Shown one piece after another: positions 13,532 to 33,087 of a stretch of DNA of 64,000 bases. The DNA is taken from positions 32,574 to 96,573 of the IMG/VR virus record IMGVR_UViG_2526164662_000021, one strand, 5' to 3'. Each line of letters opens with the position of its first letter. The stretch's first letter is position 1. The translations under genes and the position numbers were made by a program. The DNA comes from a virus. Taxonomy: Duplodnaviria > Heunggongvirae > Uroviricota > Caudoviricetes. The notes under the pieces were generated by a model, which was not told the DNA's origin, did not search any database, and saw only the letters and a program-made list of their open reading frames with translations.

Positions 13532-14377
13532 ATGCTGGCTAAAGTCACTTTCCTGAGCTGTATAACGATGAGCGATTTTACTTTTTCTGGCTATGAATTG
13601 GCCTGCTTTGTAACACACTCCGGTCTATCCCGTAGCGCCGGGCATATCCTGTCGCAATGTGCAAATCTCGCGGCAACAACCAGTGAATACTTCATTCACA
13701 AGCCTCACCGCCTGCTCGCGGCAGAAACTGGTTATAGCCAATCAACCGTCGTTCGTGCATTCCGTGAAGCTGTAAACAAAGGAATCCTGTCTGTAGAGAT
13801 TGTTATCGGCGATCACCGTGAACGTCGCGCTAACCTGTACCGGTTTACACCATCCTTTTTGGCCTTCGCACAACAAGCCAAAAATGCGCTGATTGAAAGC
13901 AAATTAAAGATCTCTTCAGCGGCAACCAAGGTTAAAGCTGTTCTCGCTAAGACATTGGCTTTATTTAATTTTTTATCCACACCCCCATGTCAAAATGATA
14001 CCCCCTCCCCCTGTCAGGATGACGTGGCAATAAAGAATAAGAAGTCACAAGTTAAAAAAACAAAAAGATCAGTTTCCGGCGGTGCCGGAACGACCAGACT
14101 CAAAAAATTGACTTCATGGATCGCTGAGGCAAAAGCAAAGGCTGACAATCTGCGGTTATCCAAAAAACGCGCTCAAAAACATGAGTTCAAGCAGAAAGTA
14201 GAGGCGGCAGCGCGGAAATATGCTTACCTGAAGGACAAGCGTTCTCCTGATATTGGCGGGATATCAAACTTCGATAATCTGCCGCATTGCATGACGGTAA
14301 ACGAAGCTCTTAATGCGGTTTTAGCCAAAAATAAAGATAACGAACAATGGGGTATACCGGCAGGATTCAGAGGGTGA
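13532..14377 (+). CDS. repL: lytic replication initiator RepL-like, 281 aa
   Basis: 281-aa ORF immediately after kilA as in P1 kilA-repL operon. Confidence 0.65.
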   Translation: MLAKVTFLSCITMSDFTFSGYELACFVTHSGLSRSAGHILSQCANLAATTSEYFIHKPHRLLAAETGYSQSTVVRAFREAVNKGILSVEIVIGDHRERRANLYRFTPSFLAFAQQAKNALIESKLKISSAATKVKAVLAKTLALFNFLSTPPCQNDTPSPCQDDVAIKNKKSQVKKTKRSVSGGAGTTRLKKLTSWIAEAKAKADNLRLSKKRAQKHEFKQKVEAAARKYAYLKDKRSPDIGGISNFDNLPHCMTVNEALNAVLAKNKDNEQWGIPAGFRG

Positions 14378-14639
14378 TAGATTGCTCTAATCTGGAGTCA
14401 CCTGGCGTTTTCAGTTTGAGGTCGGAGATGCAATCTGATTTTTTACAGTTAGCGATCGCTTTTGCAGGGCATCTTTGAGACATATCCATATATAAAAACC
14501 CAAAGCCAGATCAAAACTTGTACTGATAAAAACACAGCTAACCATCACAACTTGTAACGTTTATAATGAGTAAAAGAGTGATACATTGCTACTTTTACAT
14601 ATTTTTGACTCAATTCATGGATAGTAATGGAGATGCATA

Positions 14640-15695
14640 ATGACTTATGCTGGCACACAAACAGCAGATAACGCCGGGGATACCATGAAATCGTATGCTA
14701 TTTGGAATAATAAAGGTGGCGTAGGAAAGACCTACTTATCTTTCGCTATGGCCTGTGAATACGCAAGGCAAAATCCAGAAAAGCGTATTATTTTTGCAGA
14801 TATGTGTCCGCAGGCTAACTTATCTGAAATATTGCTCGGCGGTAACGGTACTGGTGCTGCTAACCTCGCGAGCTTAATTCAACAACGAAAAACTGTCGGT
14901 GGGTACTTTGACAGAAGAACTCGCAGCCCCCACATGCTTACCGGTTCAGAAACAAGTTTCTTAATTCATGTCTCTGAAATTAACGGGCATGTCCCTGACA
15001 ATGTATTTTTGATTGCAGGCGACCCAAGCCTGGAAGTTCAGGCGCAAGTAATCAATCAGTTAAGCAGCGTAAACTTACCAGTTGACTCATGGAAAAGCAT
15101 CCACCTGTGGCTACGAGATTTGCTTGTTGCATGTGCACAACAACAAGGTATCGAAGAAACCATTTGCTTTATTGATTGCAACCCCAGTTTCTCTGCCTAT
15201 ACCGAACTATCACTGATAGCAGCAAATGCAATTATAATACCTTGCTCAAGTGATGGTTCTTCGGCTCGAGCAGTGGATAACCTAAGCCAGTTGGTTTATG
15301 GCGTTGGAGTACAAAACGATTATCGTTCTGTTAACTTTTACGATCGGTGTCAACAGTTTGGTCTAGCGGTTCCTGTCATTCATTCTCTAGTTTTTAATCG
15401 TTCGACAGAGTATGACAAACGAGCAAGTAAAGCGTTTTCGGCAATGTTCGACGAAATCAGGGATAGAGCTGAAAATCTGCGGACGAATAAACCAACAGCG
15501 TTCCAAGGCGGAAATTTAAAAACGTTTACTGTGCCAGATAACCATTCCGTAGCTATAGTATCTTCCCATCTAGGAAGACCTCTATTTGATATAAAACCCG
15601 GCAGATATCAGATCCATGACACTGAGCCACAAATCAATAATGAACCATTAGAAAGATATGGTGCAGCAATTGAACGTCTTGTTCAGAGTTTATAG
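14640..15695 (+). CDS. ParA/MinD-family P-loop ATPase, 351 aa (orphan; possibly P1 rlfA position)
   Basis: Deviant Walker A NNKGGVGKT near N-terminus, DCNPS Walker-B-like; lower GC than backbone; own promoter-like region and terminator. Confidence 0.65.
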   Translation: MTYAGTQTADNAGDTMKSYAIWNNKGGVGKTYLSFAMACEYARQNPEKRIIFADMCPQANLSEILLGGNGTGAANLASLIQQRKTVGGYFDRRTRSPHMLTGSETSFLIHVSEINGHVPDNVFLIAGDPSLEVQAQVINQLSSVNLPVDSWKSIHLWLRDLLVACAQQQGIEETICFIDCNPSFSAYTELSLIAANAIIIPCSSDGSSARAVDNLSQLVYGVGVQNDYRSVNFYDRCQQFGLAVPVIHSLVFNRSTEYDKRASKAFSAMFDEIRDRAENLRTNKPTAFQGGNLKTFTVPDNHSVAIVSSHLGRPLFDIKPGRYQIHDTEPQINNEPLERYGAAIERLVQSL

Positions 15696-15720
15696 TGGCT
15701 TATCTCAGTCATAATGGCTG

Positions 15721-15756
15721 AAAAAAGGCTGCAACAGAGGTTGCAGCCTTTTTTAT
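15721..15756. terminator. bidirectional rho-independent terminator
   Basis: AGGCTGCAAC-AGAGG-TTGCAGCCT flanked by A-run and T-run. Confidence 0.6.
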
Positions 15757-15765
15757 AAAATTACA

Positions 15766-16056
15766 TTAACAGATTGGTAGCGATAGTAAATTATTATTCC
15801 ATCGATTGTCTGCATACGTTCTAATAAACTGCCTTCCACCATTACCAGGATTAACGACCCCAACTTCTACACGATTACCTGCATTATCTGTTACATAGAA
15901 TGTATGGAGATTATTATCAATAGCATTAATCACCTGCTCAACAGTCCATTTCCCATTGCCAGTATTAAATTGAGGACTTCCCACATGAGTAATATGCTCA
16001 TGGATTGATTGCGAGCCGGAGAGGGTAATGCAAGTAATGCGTACATCAGCCATATA
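15766..16056 (-). CDS. small hypothetical protein, about 96 aa (start at internal Met MADVRIT...)
   Basis: ORF track 15766-16137; RBS-like AGGAAG before the internal ATG; AT-rich. Confidence 0.45.
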   Translation of the reverse strand, partial: YMADVRITCITLSGSQSIHEHITHVGSPQFNTGNGKWTVEQVINAIDNNLHTFYVTDNAGNRVEVGVVNPGNGGRQFIRTYADNRWNNNLLSLPIC

Positions 16057-16343
16057 TACTTCCTTTATTCTATAGATTATAGGAATTGTGCCGCCTAAAA
16101 AACAAACAGCACAATAACAATAAAGAAACATACACACAACAAAAACTAACGCTATTTATTGATAGATTTGCCTGATGAATACTAGCTCTCTTTGCTACCT
16201 AGCACTCAAACAAATAACAGAAGAAAGCCCCAGATAACATTACGCGTCCGGCAAGACGCTTAACATTAATCTGAGGCCACATCTATGCTTAGCATACGTA
16301 GATTAACCCTCTCCCCTTTTAAGGGGTAAGGAATTTTTTACTG

Positions 16344-16976
16344 CTATGCCGCCTTTCCAGTTATGGATTCAGCGACCAGAACAACCCCATGCTTACTTCG
16401 ATCTGGGTGTTCACTCCATATCTCGGATTCAGGAATACTTACCCCGTCATAGCAAACACGTTCGCCGTCAAACGGGTAATACTGAGCGGCATCGGTGTCG
16501 AGGATAAACACTTTTAGCTCGGAAGAGCGACGGGCGATGTGTTGCCAAAGAGCTTTTCCACCTTCGTATTGCTCATTATCACTGAGCAAAACAACACCAG
16601 CTTTTGAGGCTACGGTTTCGTAAACAAAAGTAGCTAAACCTACATCCCGGACAGTTCCATCAACCACAATACCTTCAATCTGGGCAACATCGCTATCCTC
16701 CCAAAACTTCCTTACCAGTACGCCTTCAAGCTGCGGACGACGTTGAAGTTCAAGAGTAGCGACAACCTTATGGCGCATATCACCATCGATAACAGAAGGC
16801 GCAGCCTCTATTACAGCTGCAAATGGGGTTTTGGAATCCCATATAACCTGGTAAAGCACACCCTGGATGGTAACTCCGTCCAGGATCGAAAATCGACGAG
16901 CGACAGTACCCGGGGAGTACGACATTGGAATCACAGCCATTTTAGAGTCCCCCTTTAACAGTACAGGCACAAACAT
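16344..16976 (-). CDS. hypothetical protein, 210 aa
   Basis: ORF track; own terminator-like hairpin downstream. Confidence 0.5.
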   Translation of the reverse strand: MFVPVLLKGDSKMAVIPMSYSPGTVARRFSILDGVTIQGVLYQVIWDSKTPFAAVIEAAPSVIDGDMRHKVVATLELQRRPQLEGVLVRKFWEDSDVAQIEGIVVDGTVRDVGLATFVYETVASKAGVVLLSDNEQYEGGKALWQHIARRSSELKVFILDTDAAQYYPFDGERVCYDGVSIPESEIWSEHPDRSKHGVVLVAESITGKAA

Positions 16977-17111
16977 CTACCTCAATAATTGTAGTTTATT
17001 AGAACATTAATAATCTAACATAAAACTCCAGACAATGTTATCGATGCATTTTTATATAAAATAGTTATAAAAAAAGCTCCCGTAGGAGCTTTAAAATACA
17101 AGGGATGACTC

Positions 17112-22656: not shown

Positions 22657-23658
22657 TTAAGGCTTCGGCTTTTTATCGAGGCTCTTTCTAAGGATATGCC
22701 CAATCATCCTGTCGAGTTCTTCCTGTAGCTCTTTTGAAAGTCGATTAAACTCATAAGAAAATGCACGGCCTTTCACGCGCTTCCTTGCAAAGCGATCCTT
22801 GTCCTCAAATTTCCATAATTCAGTAACTACGGACTTATCTTTAGAACCTTTATCCGTGAGTAGTGAGGCTTCCTTTGTTATCAAGCGCAGGATTTTATTT
22901 TTAACTTCATCTTCGGCCATTTCTTCAATGGATAAGATGTCGTTTATTTCCGGGGATATATTTTGAATAAGCTGATCAAACTCTAAATTCTTGTTCCCCA
23001 TTTCGTCGCCAACAGCACAAAGCGTTTTGTAGTCCGAAAAGGTTAATTCCGACTGCACAGGGAAAAGGGCGACTAATTCTTCCGGAGCACTCGCTGCCTG
23101 GAGAGCACGCGTGACCTTCGCCTGAGACAGCCCTTCTTTGGCTGCAATATCCTTCTGACTCATCCCATCATTTTTCATTCGCATCAAACGCAGACCTATT
23201 TCTCGAATGCTGTGCTGCAATGCTGTCTGAACGTCTTTCGCTAAATTTTGCGCTTCCTGAACGCTGATCTCCTGGTCCGTGACTAAAACCCGCAACCCTA
23301 CGTTCTCTAAGATGGCAGAAGCTCGACGCCGGGAACCATCCAAAATTTCAATTTTCCCTGTTGCCCGTCTAACACCTATTGCAGGGTAAAATTGCTGATG
23401 CTTAATAGTGCTTCGGATACTTTTTAATGATTTTGGCGTAAGAGATGCCTGGTCACGCCCGTTGTTATGCTGATCAACAAAGGTATCGCTTTCTACCTGG
23501 TTCGGAGGTATTACCTCTTCAATAAATGTGGCCTGGCGACCAGTTGATAACTTGAATACCTGCTCGACTCGATCGCCAGAGGCTGAAGAACTATCAAATC
23601 CGCTTAATATTGAAGGATTAAGGGTTCGCCCAATTGTTGGTCTGTTTTTCTTTGACAT
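22657..23658 (-). CDS. parB: partition protein ParB, 333 aa
   Basis: 333-aa ORF immediately downstream of parA and upstream of parS. Confidence 0.85.
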   Translation of the reverse strand: MSKKNRPTIGRTLNPSILSGFDSSSASGDRVEQVFKLSTGRQATFIEEVIPPNQVESDTFVDQHNNGRDQASLTPKSLKSIRSTIKHQQFYPAIGVRRATGKIEILDGSRRRASAILENVGLRVLVTDQEISVQEAQNLAKDVQTALQHSIREIGLRLMRMKNDGMSQKDIAAKEGLSQAKVTRALQAASAPEELVALFPVQSELTFSDYKTLCAVGDEMGNKNLEFDQLIQNISPEINDILSIEEMAEDEVKNKILRLITKEASLLTDKGSKDKSVVTELWKFEDKDRFARKRVKGRAFSYEFNRLSKELQEELDRMIGHILRKSLDKKPKP

Positions 23659-23674: not shown

Positions 23675-24871
23675 TCAGTTAGATCTGATAAATTCAATAC
23701 GGTCAAAAACTGCTTTAGCAAAATCTTCCGCGGCAATTCGCGCGTTCTTCAATGCATCAGCACTACCAACATACGTTGCCGGGTTAGCTGAAATAACAGT
23801 GTCAAAAGACTCGCCGCAACGTTCAAAACCGTCAAGGCGAGGGAGGACGACATCGAGCATATCCCCACCGAACACTTCTTTAGCCAGGCTATGGCAATAC
23901 TTATGATCTGCCTTGTTACTCAACTTGGACATAAAACCAATGTTAGTCGCAAGCTGGCACTCGCAGCCTTCATCCGAAATGAGTTTCACCAACTCAGGAA
24001 GGCGGGCAACGTATTTAAGCGATGAGTGGAAATCGACAGTTGCTGGCGGCAGAGGTGTAAACAGTATATTGGCCGAGGCCAAAGCATTTTTCAGGAAGGC
24101 GTCAAGGTGAGGACCACTATCAACGAGGATAAAATCATAATCGCTCTTCAGCTTATCAATCACATTTTCTTTCAGGACAGCATGGATGTTCTGACCCGGT
24201 AGATGCTCATTGCACAGCTCTCTCCAATCGGATGCAATAAAGGCATCGTCAATCGACGCAGGCATAACGTCAACCCCAGGTACAACAGAAGGAACAATAA
24301 ACTCCTCTAACAGCTCTTCACGGCTTACATTCTGCAACATAGCCTGTGCAGATGTTGCGTTTACGATACCAATAGAGTGTTTATGGCTTAAAAACATCGT
24401 TGCTGAAGATTGCGGATCAAGGTCAATAACCAGAATCCTTAAATCTTCCATCAGAAGATGAGGGTGAGCACGCATTGCATGCGCCAGAGAAACCGTCGAT
24501 ACAGTTTTTGACACACCGCCTTTAAGATTGGAGATGAAAATCACATACGCTTCGCTGTAGCGATCCCGGTATTTTGGCACTCCGCGATGTTCATATATGT
24601 CAATGATGTTCTGAATTGACATCGCATATTTCATTGAAGAGCCAGCAGGGCGCTTATCGAAAACATAACCCTTTTCTTCCATTTCACTTACAGCATAGTC
24701 AACGTTCGCTCGAGTCAGTAGAGGCAATTTTGCCAGTGCCGCTTTCGCATAGACCTGGTAAAACTCGTTCGCGTGTAGCTCATCCTTTTGCAACTGTACT
24801 TGTTCAGTCAGAACATTGAGCATTCTGTTTGCTCTTTGAGCAACCTTGTGAAGCTGGCTGGAATCACTCAT
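23675..24871 (-). CDS. parA: partition ATPase ParA (type Ia, with N-terminal regulatory extension), 398 aa
   Basis: Deviant Walker A NLKGGVSKT; 398 aa. Confidence 0.85.
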   Translation of the reverse strand: MSDSSQLHKVAQRANRMLNVLTEQVQLQKDELHANEFYQVYAKAALAKLPLLTRANVDYAVSEMEEKGYVFDKRPAGSSMKYAMSIQNIIDIYEHRGVPKYRDRYSEAYVIFISNLKGGVSKTVSTVSLAHAMRAHPHLLMEDLRILVIDLDPQSSATMFLSHKHSIGIVNATSAQAMLQNVSREELLEEFIVPSVVPGVDVMPASIDDAFIASDWRELCNEHLPGQNIHAVLKENVIDKLKSDYDFILVDSGPHLDAFLKNALASANILFTPLPPATVDFHSSLKYVARLPELVKLISDEGCECQLATNIGFMSKLSNKADHKYCHSLAKEVFGGDMLDVVLPRLDGFERCGESFDTVISANPATYVGSADALKNARIAAEDFAKAVFDRIEFIRSN

Positions 24872-30826: not shown

Positions 30827-33087
30827 AAGAGCTGTGCTATGGATCTGTTTGCAGTGGAATTGAAGCCGCGAGTATTGCCTGGGAACCGTTGGGTATGCGT
30901 CCGGCGTGGTTTGCTGAAATCGAGCCTTTTCCATCTGCCGTTCTTGCGCACCGCTGGCCCCATGTCGCCAACCTTGGCGACATGACAAAACTTGCCAAAA
31001 AAGTCCTGGCTGGGGAAATCGAATCCCCTGATGTGCTCGTCGGGGGAACACCTTGTCAGGCATTCAGTATCGCTGGATTACGTGGTGGGCTTGATGATGA
31101 GCGTGGCGCGCTAACTTTAAAGTATGTGGAGCTTGCAAATGCAATTGACGACAAACGGGCTGAGTCATTTCTCAAACCGACAGTTATCGTCTGGGAAAAT
31201 GTCCCAGGAGTCCTGTCATCGGCAGATAACGCCTTCGGATGTTTCCTTGCCGGATTGGCTGGAGAAGATGCGCCATTTGAACCAGGTGATCGACCTGAAT
31301 CAGGAAAAAGTAACGCGTTCTGGCGGTGGGATGGCAAAACCGGTTGCCATGCTCCAAAGTGGCCGCAGTGTGGTTGTATTTATGGACCGCAGCGAAAGGT
31401 GGCCTGGAGAATCCTTGATGCCCAATACTTCGGAGTGGCACAACGACGCCGACGCGTGTTTGTTGTCGCAAGTGCTCGAACAGACCTCGATCCCGCAACG
31501 GTACTTTTTGAGTTCGAAGGCGTGCGCCGGAATATTGCGCCGAGCCGAAAAAAGAAGGAAATCGCTTCCGCCATTATTGCAAATGGCGCTGCAATCAGTG
31601 GCGAAAGCCTAAATCCATGCCTACACGCTGACATGCCACCCGGTATGAAATCGACGAAAGCCGTAAACGCTTTCAGGATGGCAGCATTTGGGGAATATAT
31701 TGACGATGAAACCGCATCGACAGTAAAGGCAAGAGATTTTAAAGATGCCACTGACCTTGCCGTTTTTAGCAGCACAGGAGCAGGTTTTTGGTCAGAAGGG
31801 CATGGTACATTGCGGGCACGTGAGCAAGAAAGCCATGAGCATCTTGTTACATTGGCTTTTCCTGAGCGTATGAGCGGTACACAACATGCTGCAACTAAGA
31901 ATACTTCACCATCTCTGATGGCTAAAAATCCAACAGCTGTTTGCTATGAAGTAAGAAACGCAGAAGTAGCTGTCCGCCGTCTTACCCCTGTCGAATGTGA
32001 AAGGCTGCAAGGTTTTCCTGATGGGCATACGTTGATCCCGACGGAAAAGCGTAAAAAAGTTAATTCAGATGAACTGGCATATCTTCGCAATCACTATCCA
32101 GATTTAAGCGAAGAAGAGGCCGCGATGCTTGCAGCTGACGGACCGCGTTACAAAGCGATCGGCAATAGTATGGCAATACCAGTAATGCGCTGGATTGGCG
32201 ATCGGATTACTAAGGCCGTATGTCGGCAGAAAGAAGGAAGTGAAACAAAAGAGCGAAAAGTTAAACCAGCGGCAGAATTCGAACGGTCCATATTCAAATG
32301 GGCTGGTGGAAAATTTGGTGTTCTGGAACAAATCTTTCGCTATTTGCCAGAAGGGAAGCGCCTGATCGAACCTTTTGTCGGTGGCGGAGCTGTCTTCACG
32401 AATGCCGGATACCAGGAAAATCTGCTAAATGATGTGAATGCTGACCTGATTAACTTTTACAAGACTCTGCAACGCGAGGCGCATTCACTTATCACACTGG
32501 CGCATCGGTTTTTCCAGGACTACAACACACAGGAAGGATACCTGGCAGTACGGAATGCGTTTAACAAACAAGTCTATGATGATTTACATCGCGCAGCGGC
32601 GTTTTTGTTCCTGAACCGACATTGTTTTAACGGATTGACGCGTTACAACCAGGCCGGTGAGTTCAATGTCGGTTATGGGAAGTATAAAACTCCGTATTTC
32701 CCATTACAGGAGATGGAAGCCTTCCTCGGTGCGGAAGGGCGTTCTGAGTTTGTATGTGGTGATTTTGCTGCGGTGATTGAAGCTGCCGGAGAAGGAGATG
32801 TCATCTTCTGTGATCCGCCGTATGAACCGCTTCCAAATACAGAGGGATTCACGAACTATTCCGGTCATGACTTTAAGTTTGAAGAGCAAAAACGCCTGGT
32901 GTCTCTGTTGACGGATGCTCATCGCCGAGGTGCAAAGGTTCTCATTACTAACAGTGGCGCGCCAAACATCAGAGAGCTTTATCATGACAATGGCTTCAGA
33001 GTGGAACCTCTTTTTGCCAGACGTTCTGTGTCTTGTAAGGGGGACACTCGAGGTGTTGCTCATGACGTCTTAGGCATATTGCTCTAA
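30823..33087 (+). CDS. dmt: bifunctional DNA methyltransferase (N-terminal C5-cytosine-like, C-terminal Dam-like N6-adenine), 754 aa
   Basis: N-half motifs [11 protein letters not shown] and ENVPG; C-half FVGGGAVF and CDPPY. Confidence 0.85.

Follow-up and report, generated by a model that had tools for sequence, protein, structure and literature searches.

Introduction

ATPases of the ParA/MinD superfamily are understood as two-component positioning machines that consist of the ATPase and an activating partner. Here, we analyze an ATPase of this superfamily that is encoded, together with a small DUF3892 protein, by an AT-rich accessory cassette of a P1-like phage-plasmid. The cassette lies in a stretch of 64,000 nucleotides (nt) of IMG/VR record IMGVR_UViG_2526164662_000021 (positions 32,574 to 96,573), here called the window, and all positions count from the first letter of the window. 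The ATPase belongs to a clade that does not fit the two-component picture and that differs from every characterized ParA/MinD role: Its members are solo, cI-linked, borne by insertion sequences (ISs), found in archaea as well, and highly conserved. We regard it as highly probable that the cassette represents two stacked morons in a polymorphic slot and that its ATPase is a member of a partner-less, mobile ParA clade. By analogy, the ATPase might have an exclusion or defense-type function, a tentative proposal that is somewhat more apt to be wrong than right.

Five described systems come closest to this locus. With ParA, Soj, MinD, and McdA, the ATPase shares the KGGxxGK[ST] motif, the signature Lys, the Walker A' and Walker B Asp residues, DxxPQ.N- and DC.PS-like motifs, and the predicted fold. 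However, it is only 15 to 20% identical to any solved member and has ~80 extra residues with conserved clade-specific insertions (~60 to 120 and the C-terminal ~70), and its clade lacks a ParB-, MinE-, or McdB-type partner gene and is found in integrated prophages and ISs. Lambda rexAB and other cI-linked morons offer a second comparison in that most viral loci of the ATPase lie downstream of cI on the same strand, with their own terminator, a patchy distribution, and an atypical composition; by contrast, the ATPase is unrelated to RexA and RexB by sequence or fold, is encoded by a single gene, and in the window follows repL rather than a repressor gene. P1 rlfA-rlfB (rapA-rapB in P7) fill the same slot between repL and pmgF/bplB and likewise form a two-gene accessory unit with the flavor of a defense candidate, but these genes are co-directional and overlapping, whereas the cassette genes are convergent and encode unrelated proteins. 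The orphan parA of phage phi297 (gp27, YP_005098054) encodes a true homolog, which is 71% identical over the full length and also lacks a parB; yet, it follows a CI-like repressor gene in an integrating D3-like phage and has no DUF3892 gene beside it. Finally, ATPase homologs are found within the terminal inverted repeats of passenger-carrying IS1595 (loci L070 to L072) and IS1 (locus L064) elements, while neither a transposase gene nor terminal repeats nor a target duplication border the copy in the window.

Results

The ATPase gene (14640 to 15695, plus strand) codes for 351 amino acids (aa), and its KGGVGKT motif, which begins at nt 14712, is the sole KGGxGK[ST] motif in the window. The initial annotation had described the product as a deviant-Walker-A, ParA/MinD-like ATPase, and profile and structure comparisons bear this out. 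The protein matches Pfam AAA_31 (5.9e-15, 56 bits against a cutoff of 27) as well as CbiA and PHROG 164 ("ParA-like," 6.5e-43), and the top Foldseek matches of its AlphaFold2 (AF2) model (pLDDT 85) are ParA, Soj, and McdA (probability 1.00, E ~1e-11, TM to target ~0.7, 15 to 20% identity). The deviant Walker A sequence NNKGGVGKT provides the signature residues Lys25 and Lys30, and Asp54 and Asp179 represent Walker A' and Walker B, respectively. Lys25, G26-G29, Lys30, Asp54, and Asp179 are invariant in an alignment of 21 diverse homologs (55 to 85% identity), and so are the clade-specific motifs DMCPQANLSE, GDPSLE, DCNPSFSAYTE, PCSSDGSSARA, NRST.Y..ASKAF, and PD.HSVAIV.SH.G.PL. Thus, judged by sequence and model, the protein is a deviant-Walker-A member of the ParA/MinD superfamily with a predicted SIMIBI fold and a predicted intact catalytic site. 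An obvious MinD-type C-terminal amphipathic tail was not found in the AF2 model, in which helix 334-350 lies within the confidently modeled region. The invariant cysteines C56, C180, and C202 were considered as a candidate Fe-S or metal site; this idea was dropped, as they sit in ordinary ParA motifs (DxDPQ-like, DCPPS-like, and the following strand). Most homologs have a length of ~336 aa, with a start that corresponds to the second Met (14685), and the nucleotide alignment with enterobacterial relatives sets in at ~14672 to 14682; because both begin near the second Met, the start codon of the window gene is ambiguous (14640 or 14685).

The proposal that this ATPase is an orphan, remote from the real parAB locus and without a ParB or a centromere of its own, also holds. 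The genuine partition operon of the window consists of parA (23675 to 24871) and parB (22657 to 23658), both on the minus strand and ~8 kb from the ATPase gene, and the two ATPases are 30% identical over 69 residues in the P-loop region alone. No tandem repeats, direct-repeat or iteron-like arrays, or centromere were found in 14000 to 17000, and no ParB is encoded beside the ATPase. The NCBIfam ParA_partition model gives 39.8 bits against a cutoff of 180, and RepA/SopA-type models match the P-loop alone. Neighborhoods of relatives were compared in two sets, i.e., 80 genomic loci (±4 kb; 78 distinct once three copies in one genome are merged), which were clustered by their neighbors, and 80 viral loci (neighbors ±5 kb) retrieved from the 110 IMG/VR contigs that contain relatives. 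A conserved partner gene was searched for in both sets and rejected, since none stands next to the ATPase gene except those for repressors and transposases. The cassette is neither the partition system of the plasmid nor rlfA.

What recurs beside the ATPase gene is a phage repressor gene. Members of the clade are most often found in the immunity regions of lambdoid and D3-like prophages, where the gene directly follows cI and shares its strand. Of the 80 IMG/VR loci, 57 have a gene for a CI-type repressor (47 with HTH_3 and Peptidase_S24, 10 with Phage_CI_repr) as the nearest upstream same-strand open reading frame (ORF), and the layout O, cII, cro / cI, ParA-like gene is kept even in a subgroup at 34 to 37% identity; nine of the 80 loci are of the P1-like type. 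In a Serratia prophage contig (L006, 85% identity) and in contig L092, cro / cI is followed by the ParA-like gene on the cI strand. Klebsiella phage ST11-VIM1phi8.2 has the order O, cII, cro / cI, a 49-aa ORF, and then the ParA-like gene, and in Pseudomonas phage phi297 (71% identity) the ParA-like gene comes after that of the CI-like repressor. Contig L091 has the gene in a lambdoid early region, and a repressor gene is not recognizable beside it. The enterobacterial copies align at the nucleotide level within the coding sequence alone, and a separate hairpin terminator belongs to each of them; by this comparison, the copies have the architecture of morons. Krylov et al. 2012 (PMC3564109) noted the phi297 parA without parB and speculated on unstable lysogeny; beyond this remark, we found no paper on this ATPase clade in the literature.

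The clade is widespread and conserved. We found 4523 homologs of the ATPase, and relatives occur in 345 stretches of species-representative genomes, including those of Hodarchaeota, Methanoperedenaceae, and Micrarchaeota. Identity to the E. coli ATPase is 55 to 60% in Desulfovibrio, Halomonas, Acidiferrobacter, Patescibacteria, and others, and the range of 50 to 60% spans E. coli plasmids to Acidobacteriota, Patescibacteria, and archaea. Because a profile search of 1.84 billion representatives gave only 164 clusters at E < 1e-30, the clade is compact. In ten longer relatives from this search, the ATPase is the only Pfam domain, and five other long forms seem to owe their length to start codons called too far upstream; the long forms thus yielded no domain fusion that might hint at a function. 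RefSeq already labels both cassette genes generically ("ParA family protein" and "DUF3892 domain-containing protein").

ISs are a second vehicle of the clade. IS1595-family transposase genes are the most frequent neighbors of the ATPase gene (10 genomic loci; eight with the three same-genome copies merged), and IS1-like transposase genes adjoin it in ~7 genomic loci. In a Vicinamibacterales metagenome-assembled genome (MAG; OZ250139.1), a unit of 2272 bp is present in three copies (L070, 7883 to 10154; L071; L072) that are 99.96 to 100% identical, and 23-bp terminal inverted repeats enclose the ParA-like gene and an IS1595 transposase gene. Because this unit holds both genes within terminal repeats, the homolog in OZ250139.1 is an IS passenger; in the one copy examined, an apparent 8-bp direct repeat (ATCGGAAA) flanks the unit. 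Similarly, in a Gammaproteobacteria MAG (OZ250153.1; L064, 7236 to 9391), perfect 16-bp inverted repeats (GGTAGTGGCTCAGTTT) enclose an IS1-like transposase gene and the gene for a ParA-like homolog. Terminal inverted repeats around both genes were found in none of the 11 other transposase-adjacent loci tested, the ends of which are too diverged to define. The ATPase gene in the window, with neither a transposase gene nor terminal repeats at its borders, is not an IS passenger. The clade therefore has three mobile vehicles: the immunity region of prophages, ISs, and the P1-like hotspot. Some immediate genomic neighbors are restriction-modification, GmrSD, PD-Lambda-1, PD-T4-2, NsnA, or ShosA genes; as raw occurrences, these are suggestive of a conflict context.

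The hotspot itself is the interval that follows repL. In the window, the order ant1, kilA, repL is that of P1, at ~98% nucleotide identity. Homology to P1 and P7 stops at 14391, and that to P1 restarts at 17070 in bplB. In blastn searches and alignments against two P1-like phages, vB_EcoM-673R5 and MH422554, homology runs up to 14477 and again from 16219; because it breaks off and restarts there, we place the accessory cassette proper at 14478 to 16218 (1741 bp, GC 0.397), where the two phages have ~250 bp. Neither a transposase gene nor terminal or flanking inverted repeats nor a target duplication was seen at the cassette edges. An AT-rich island between repL and the late genes had been noted from the sequence, and the GC content of 14400 to 16340 is indeed 0.401 against 0.471 for the window, i.e., within the lowest 2.6% of windows of the same size.

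Downstream of repL, P1 (NC_005856) carries, in this order, the C1 operator Orlf, rlfA (234 aa, DUF3800), rlfB (154 aa), pmgF, and bplB. The content of this interval varies among P1-like elements: rlfA-rlfB in P1, P7, and JL22; an intact hok/mok-like gene in MH422554 and phi456; a gene for an Ail/Lom outer-membrane protein in SJ46; and the transposase gene orfB of the IS605 family in RCS47. Sequence comparison thus indicates that the interval from repL to pmgF/bplB is an exchangeable accessory slot in P1-like elements, and the recognition of the "replication-linked" rlfAB position as such a slot is useful for typing and engineering P1-like plasmids. At the nucleotide (megablast) level, no INPHARED phage record contains the island, while two INPHARED phages encode an ATPase homolog at 71% protein identity. 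The island is present in 40 PLSDB plasmids (98 to 99.9% identity) and in 39 of the 517 complete E. coli genomes with a P1-type repL (~7.5%), in which it is always plasmid-borne; the same 39 genomes have both genes, and the ATPase gene is complete in 38 and split in one. The cassette has the traits of a prophage moron: It is present or absent among collinear relatives, has an atypical GC content, and has its own terminator. In the P1-like plasmid NZ_CP122664.1, the match to the ATPase gene is in two parts, of which the larger spans 71% of the gene, while the DUF3892 gene is intact; judged from these matches, the ATPase gene, annotated as hypothetical, appears to be disrupted. Separately, 11 of the 530 P1-type repL matches in complete E. 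coli genomes lie on chromosomes, a sign that P1-like elements may be integrated or persist as remnants there.

Identity with P1 rlfA, as a gene conserved in all P1-like genomes, had been left open in the initial annotation. The ATPase is not rlfA: RlfA is a DUF3800 (PF12686) protein that also matches the PADLOC candidate PDC-M04A (1e-95), the ATPase matches neither, and the carriers amount to only the ~7.5% given above. Nor is the cassette as a whole rlfA/rlfB, to which it has no sequence relation. As a side observation, the P1 rlfA/rlfB genes (NC_005856, 51740 to 52908) have long been annotated as "possibly associated with lytic replication," yet RlfA as well as RlfB (PDC-M04B, 1e-51) match phage-defense candidates of PADLOC.

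The second cassette gene is convergent to the first, as had been proposed for an ORF of roughly 96 aa; it codes for 95 aa (15766 to 16053, minus strand) and its start is preceded by AAGGAAG. The protein is a DUF3892 protein (PF13031, 2.4e-15, 57.2 bits against 22.3; residues 6 to 94 align with profile positions 1 to 71 of 71) and matches phrog_8224 (2e-38). Cys8, His23 (in ITHVG), and Cys95 are invariant in the alignment. A dsRBD/HPF-like fold and a possible role as an RNA or ribosome sensor domain have been claimed for DUF3892 (10.1101/2025.01.14.632903). Because the AF2 model of the window protein (pLDDT 84.5) has no significant neighbor in the PDB, this fold is not confirmed here. A passage in another report (10.1101/2022.04.27.489752), which cites Burroughs & Aravind 2020, gives DUF3892 as predicted to be defense-linked.

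Homologs of the DUF3892 protein at 67 to 73% identity are encoded alone at the edges of satellite-like elements (with AlpA, capsid, SSB, and D5 primase). As a general partner of the ATPase, DUF3892 was rejected: tblastn detected it in none of the 80 genomic loci and, among the viral loci, in the nine P1-like ones alone. Hence, DUF3892 is paired with the ATPase in P1-like elements only and is otherwise an independent accessory gene. On the chromosomes of Proteus vulgaris (L100) and Pectobacterium versatile (L102), a solo DUF3892 gene lies downstream of rpoD, at the edge of a prophage- or satellite-like element that is integrated beside dnaG-rpoD. In Salmonella contigs of integrative and conjugative elements (L097 to L099, 5001 to 6357), a DUF3892 homolog is followed on the same strand by a gene for an FRG-domain protein that matches PDC-S15, and by this arrangement DUF3892-FRG is possibly a two-gene unit.

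Discussion

Here, we place the cassette ATPase in a partner-less clade that travels in prophages, ISs, and P1-like plasmids, and we suggest, tentatively, that it functions in exclusion or defense. We favor such a role because genes behind cI and the cargo of the P1 slot typically have lysogenic-conversion or conflict functions. Cargo positioning, plasmid incompatibility, and interference had been named as roles of orphan ParA-like ATPases; the first two are disfavored by the finding that the relatives reside mostly behind cI in integrated prophages or in ISs, while interference is possible and is the role that we prefer. In the proposed mechanism, the ATPase would be expressed from the resident prophage or plasmid in the lysogen, would form an ATP-sandwich dimer like other ParA-family proteins, and would bind either to DNA or to some component of the cell that is universally conserved. 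The ATPase would then act against incoming or competing elements, either in superinfection exclusion or as a defense-type lysogenic conversion, and DUF3892 would add to this hotspot another conflict-type gene, independent of the first. In its most specific form, the idea is that the partner-less, cI-linked ATPase could be a single-gene immunity or exclusion factor, i.e., a switch that depends on ATP, sits on DNA or the nucleoid, and blocks the establishment, replication, or positioning of incoming DNA, that its conservation might reflect a universal target, and that IS1595/IS1, lambdoid prophages, and P1-like plasmids might have spread it across bacteria and archaea; in all these particulars, the idea is unlikely to be right. 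For the broader statement that joins identity, evolution, and an exclusion or defense function, we see the chances as evenly balanced. If an exclusion or defense function is true, the ATPase would represent a mechanistically new single-gene system and explain the recurrent gene behind cI in prophages of Enterobacterales and Pseudomonas; if it has no conflict role, the cassette would be an ordinary accessory cassette.

Several observations weigh against an exclusion or defense function. First, among the 5027 models of PADLOC-DB v2.0.0 (E <= 0.1), no family matches the ATPase, the DUF3892 protein, or the 210-aa protein encoded to their right, and many genomic neighbors of the ATPase are housekeeping genes. 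Second, at 55 to 60% identity between phyla, the conservation of the clade is unusually high if it encodes an immunity function, and its members have no recognizable effector domain. Third, the 57 cI-adjacent loci come from related lambdoid prophages and are not 57 independent events, and the function is a prediction for every member of the clade. Fourth, in the P1 context, the ATPase gene follows a C1 operator remnant and not a repressor gene; because this remnant precedes it, the lysogen might keep the gene repressed until induction turns it on, which would fit a lytic role better. Fifth, the promoter-like region of its own that had been ascribed to the gene stands only in part: The spacer upstream of the gene is AT-rich (262 bp, GC 0.36) and contains a perfect TATAAT (14562 to 14567), but a consensus scan of the spacer found no full −35/−10 promoter, and promoter-like sites in the region are not above those in shuffled sequences.

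Among the alternatives to an independent exclusion or defense ATPase, the one that survives best, although we doubt it even more than the specific switch described above, is a genuine two-gene system in which the ATPase and DUF3892 would act jointly, e.g., in the manner of a toxin-antitoxin pair or as a sensor coupled to a switch formed by the ATPase. The two genes are always co-inherited (39 E. coli genomes, 40 PLSDB plasmids, and nine IMG/VR loci), lie close together on either side of a common terminator, and came into the slot in a single block of 1741 bp, and elsewhere DUF3892 pairs with other larger proteins, e.g., FRG/PDC-S15. This pairing is, however, limited to one lineage with 95.8 to 100% nucleotide identity and therefore amounts to a single acquisition. 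Moreover, DUF3892 is not beside the ATPase in the 80 genomic loci, the 71 other viral loci, or four close enterobacterial relatives, and the two genes, which converge and do not share a transcript, are each found without the other in different contexts.

Three further alternatives are, in our judgment, improbable, each to a similar degree. In one, the ATPase would be a second partition or positioning ATPase for the phage-plasmid or a cargo, or would cause incompatibility with related plasmids. Its true ParA fold and intact ATPase site are what such a protein would have, all 39 of the 39 E. coli carriers have it on a plasmid, and Krylov et al. (PMC3564109) speculated along the same lines for phi297. 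Against this stand the missing ParB and centromere-like repeats, the full parAB operon that the plasmid already carries, and the ParA_partition score far below its cutoff; 92% of the P1-type elements in E. coli do without the ATPase, and most relatives are in integrated prophages and ISs, where partition is meaningless.

In another, which starts from the IS-borne copies, the ATPase would be an accessory factor for the DNA of mobile elements (MuB/TnsC/IstB-like) that guides target choice or immunity of IS1595 and IS1, and the copies in prophages and P1-like elements would have been captured or domesticated. Homologs lie inside both IS1595-type and IS1-type terminal repeats, one of them in the three nearly identical copies, and such transposase genes adjoin the ATPase gene, in both gene orders, in ~15 of the 78 distinct genomic loci (~17 of 80 uncorrected). 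IS1595 and IS1 are related families, which speaks for the same idea. By contrast, ~80% of the genomic and essentially all viral loci lack such a transposase gene, clear enclosing repeats were found at L070 and L064 alone among the transposase-adjacent loci tested, and passengers in such ISs are usually cargo. Also, to our knowledge, IS1 and IS1595 transpose without helpers.

In the last of these, the ATPase would be a lytic-phase or anti-defense factor that is controlled by C1, is induced together with kilA-repL, and aids lytic replication or counters host defenses. The gene does lie directly downstream of repL and of the core of Orlf, and the P1 genes in this slot were named "replication-linked functions." P1 annotates Orlf (Op55) directly after repL; the remnant in the window (14381 to 14397), inside which P1/P7 homology stops, keeps the core ATTGCTCTAAT (14381 to 14391), while its 3' six bases are unlike those of P1. 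Thus, of the 17 operator bases only 11 survive, and ~180 bp separate the operator from the sole good −10 element. Furthermore, in lambdoid phages the ATPase gene is on the side of the cI transcript and not in the early lytic operons. That the cassette is simply P1 rlfA/rlfB is refuted and keeps virtually no probability, for it shares the position after repL but encodes proteins unrelated to the DUF3800 protein of 234 aa and the 154-aa protein (PDC-M04), and P1 homology stops at 14391.

Other Features of the Locus

On the left, the cassette is flanked by repL (13532 to 14377, plus strand), which encodes the lytic replication initiator, is 98% identical to P1 repL at the nucleotide level, and belongs to the backbone outside the cassette. 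The spacer between the operator remnant and the ATPase gene contains a direct repeat, ATCA(A/C)AACTTGTA, in two copies (14510 to 14522 and 14544 to 14556) that are 34 bp apart and beside the TATAAT; this repeat may be due to chance or represent a regulatory site.

The two convergent genes have in common a bidirectional intrinsic terminator (15721 to 15754), and its strength, as described initially, is evident from the predicted structure. The terminator is a perfect inverted repeat of 15 bp (arms 15721 to 15735 and 15740 to 15754) flanked by A6 and T6, its folding energy is −28.5 kcal/mol (z −6.7), and none of 200 shuffled sequences folds as well. An inverted-repeat search also found an imperfect palindrome, TTCCTTTATTCTATAGATTATAGGAA (16060 to 16085), which overlaps the ribosome-binding site of the DUF3892 gene and may act as an operator or as a hairpin that controls translation.

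To the right of the cassette, 90 bp (16219 to 16308, plus strand) represent the remnant of a hok/mok/sok leader, which is 94 to 97% identical to the mok leader of Rac and of the P1-like MH422554 and is an older layer of the slot outside the cassette. There is no Hok-like ORF at this remnant, and Rfam sok reaches 20.2 bits against a gathering score of 59; the only matches in the Rfam scan, all below threshold, were this sok remnant and terminator look-alikes. The right backbone flank is an extended pmgF homolog (16344 to 16976, minus strand; 210 aa; phrog_7522, 3.6e-147). Its product is 43% identical to P1 PmgF (98 aa), and because this resemblance is confined to the N-terminal ~65 residues, the C-terminal half of the protein is an addition in this lineage.

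Another low-GC island of the window (9592 to 10714, GC ~0.31), more pronounced than the first, lies upstream of the c4/icd/ant region, in a position that we take to be that of the sim superimmunity genes on the P1 map. It contains two ORFs on the minus strand (270 and 111 aa), both of which encode proteins with hydrophobic, signal-peptide-like N termini.

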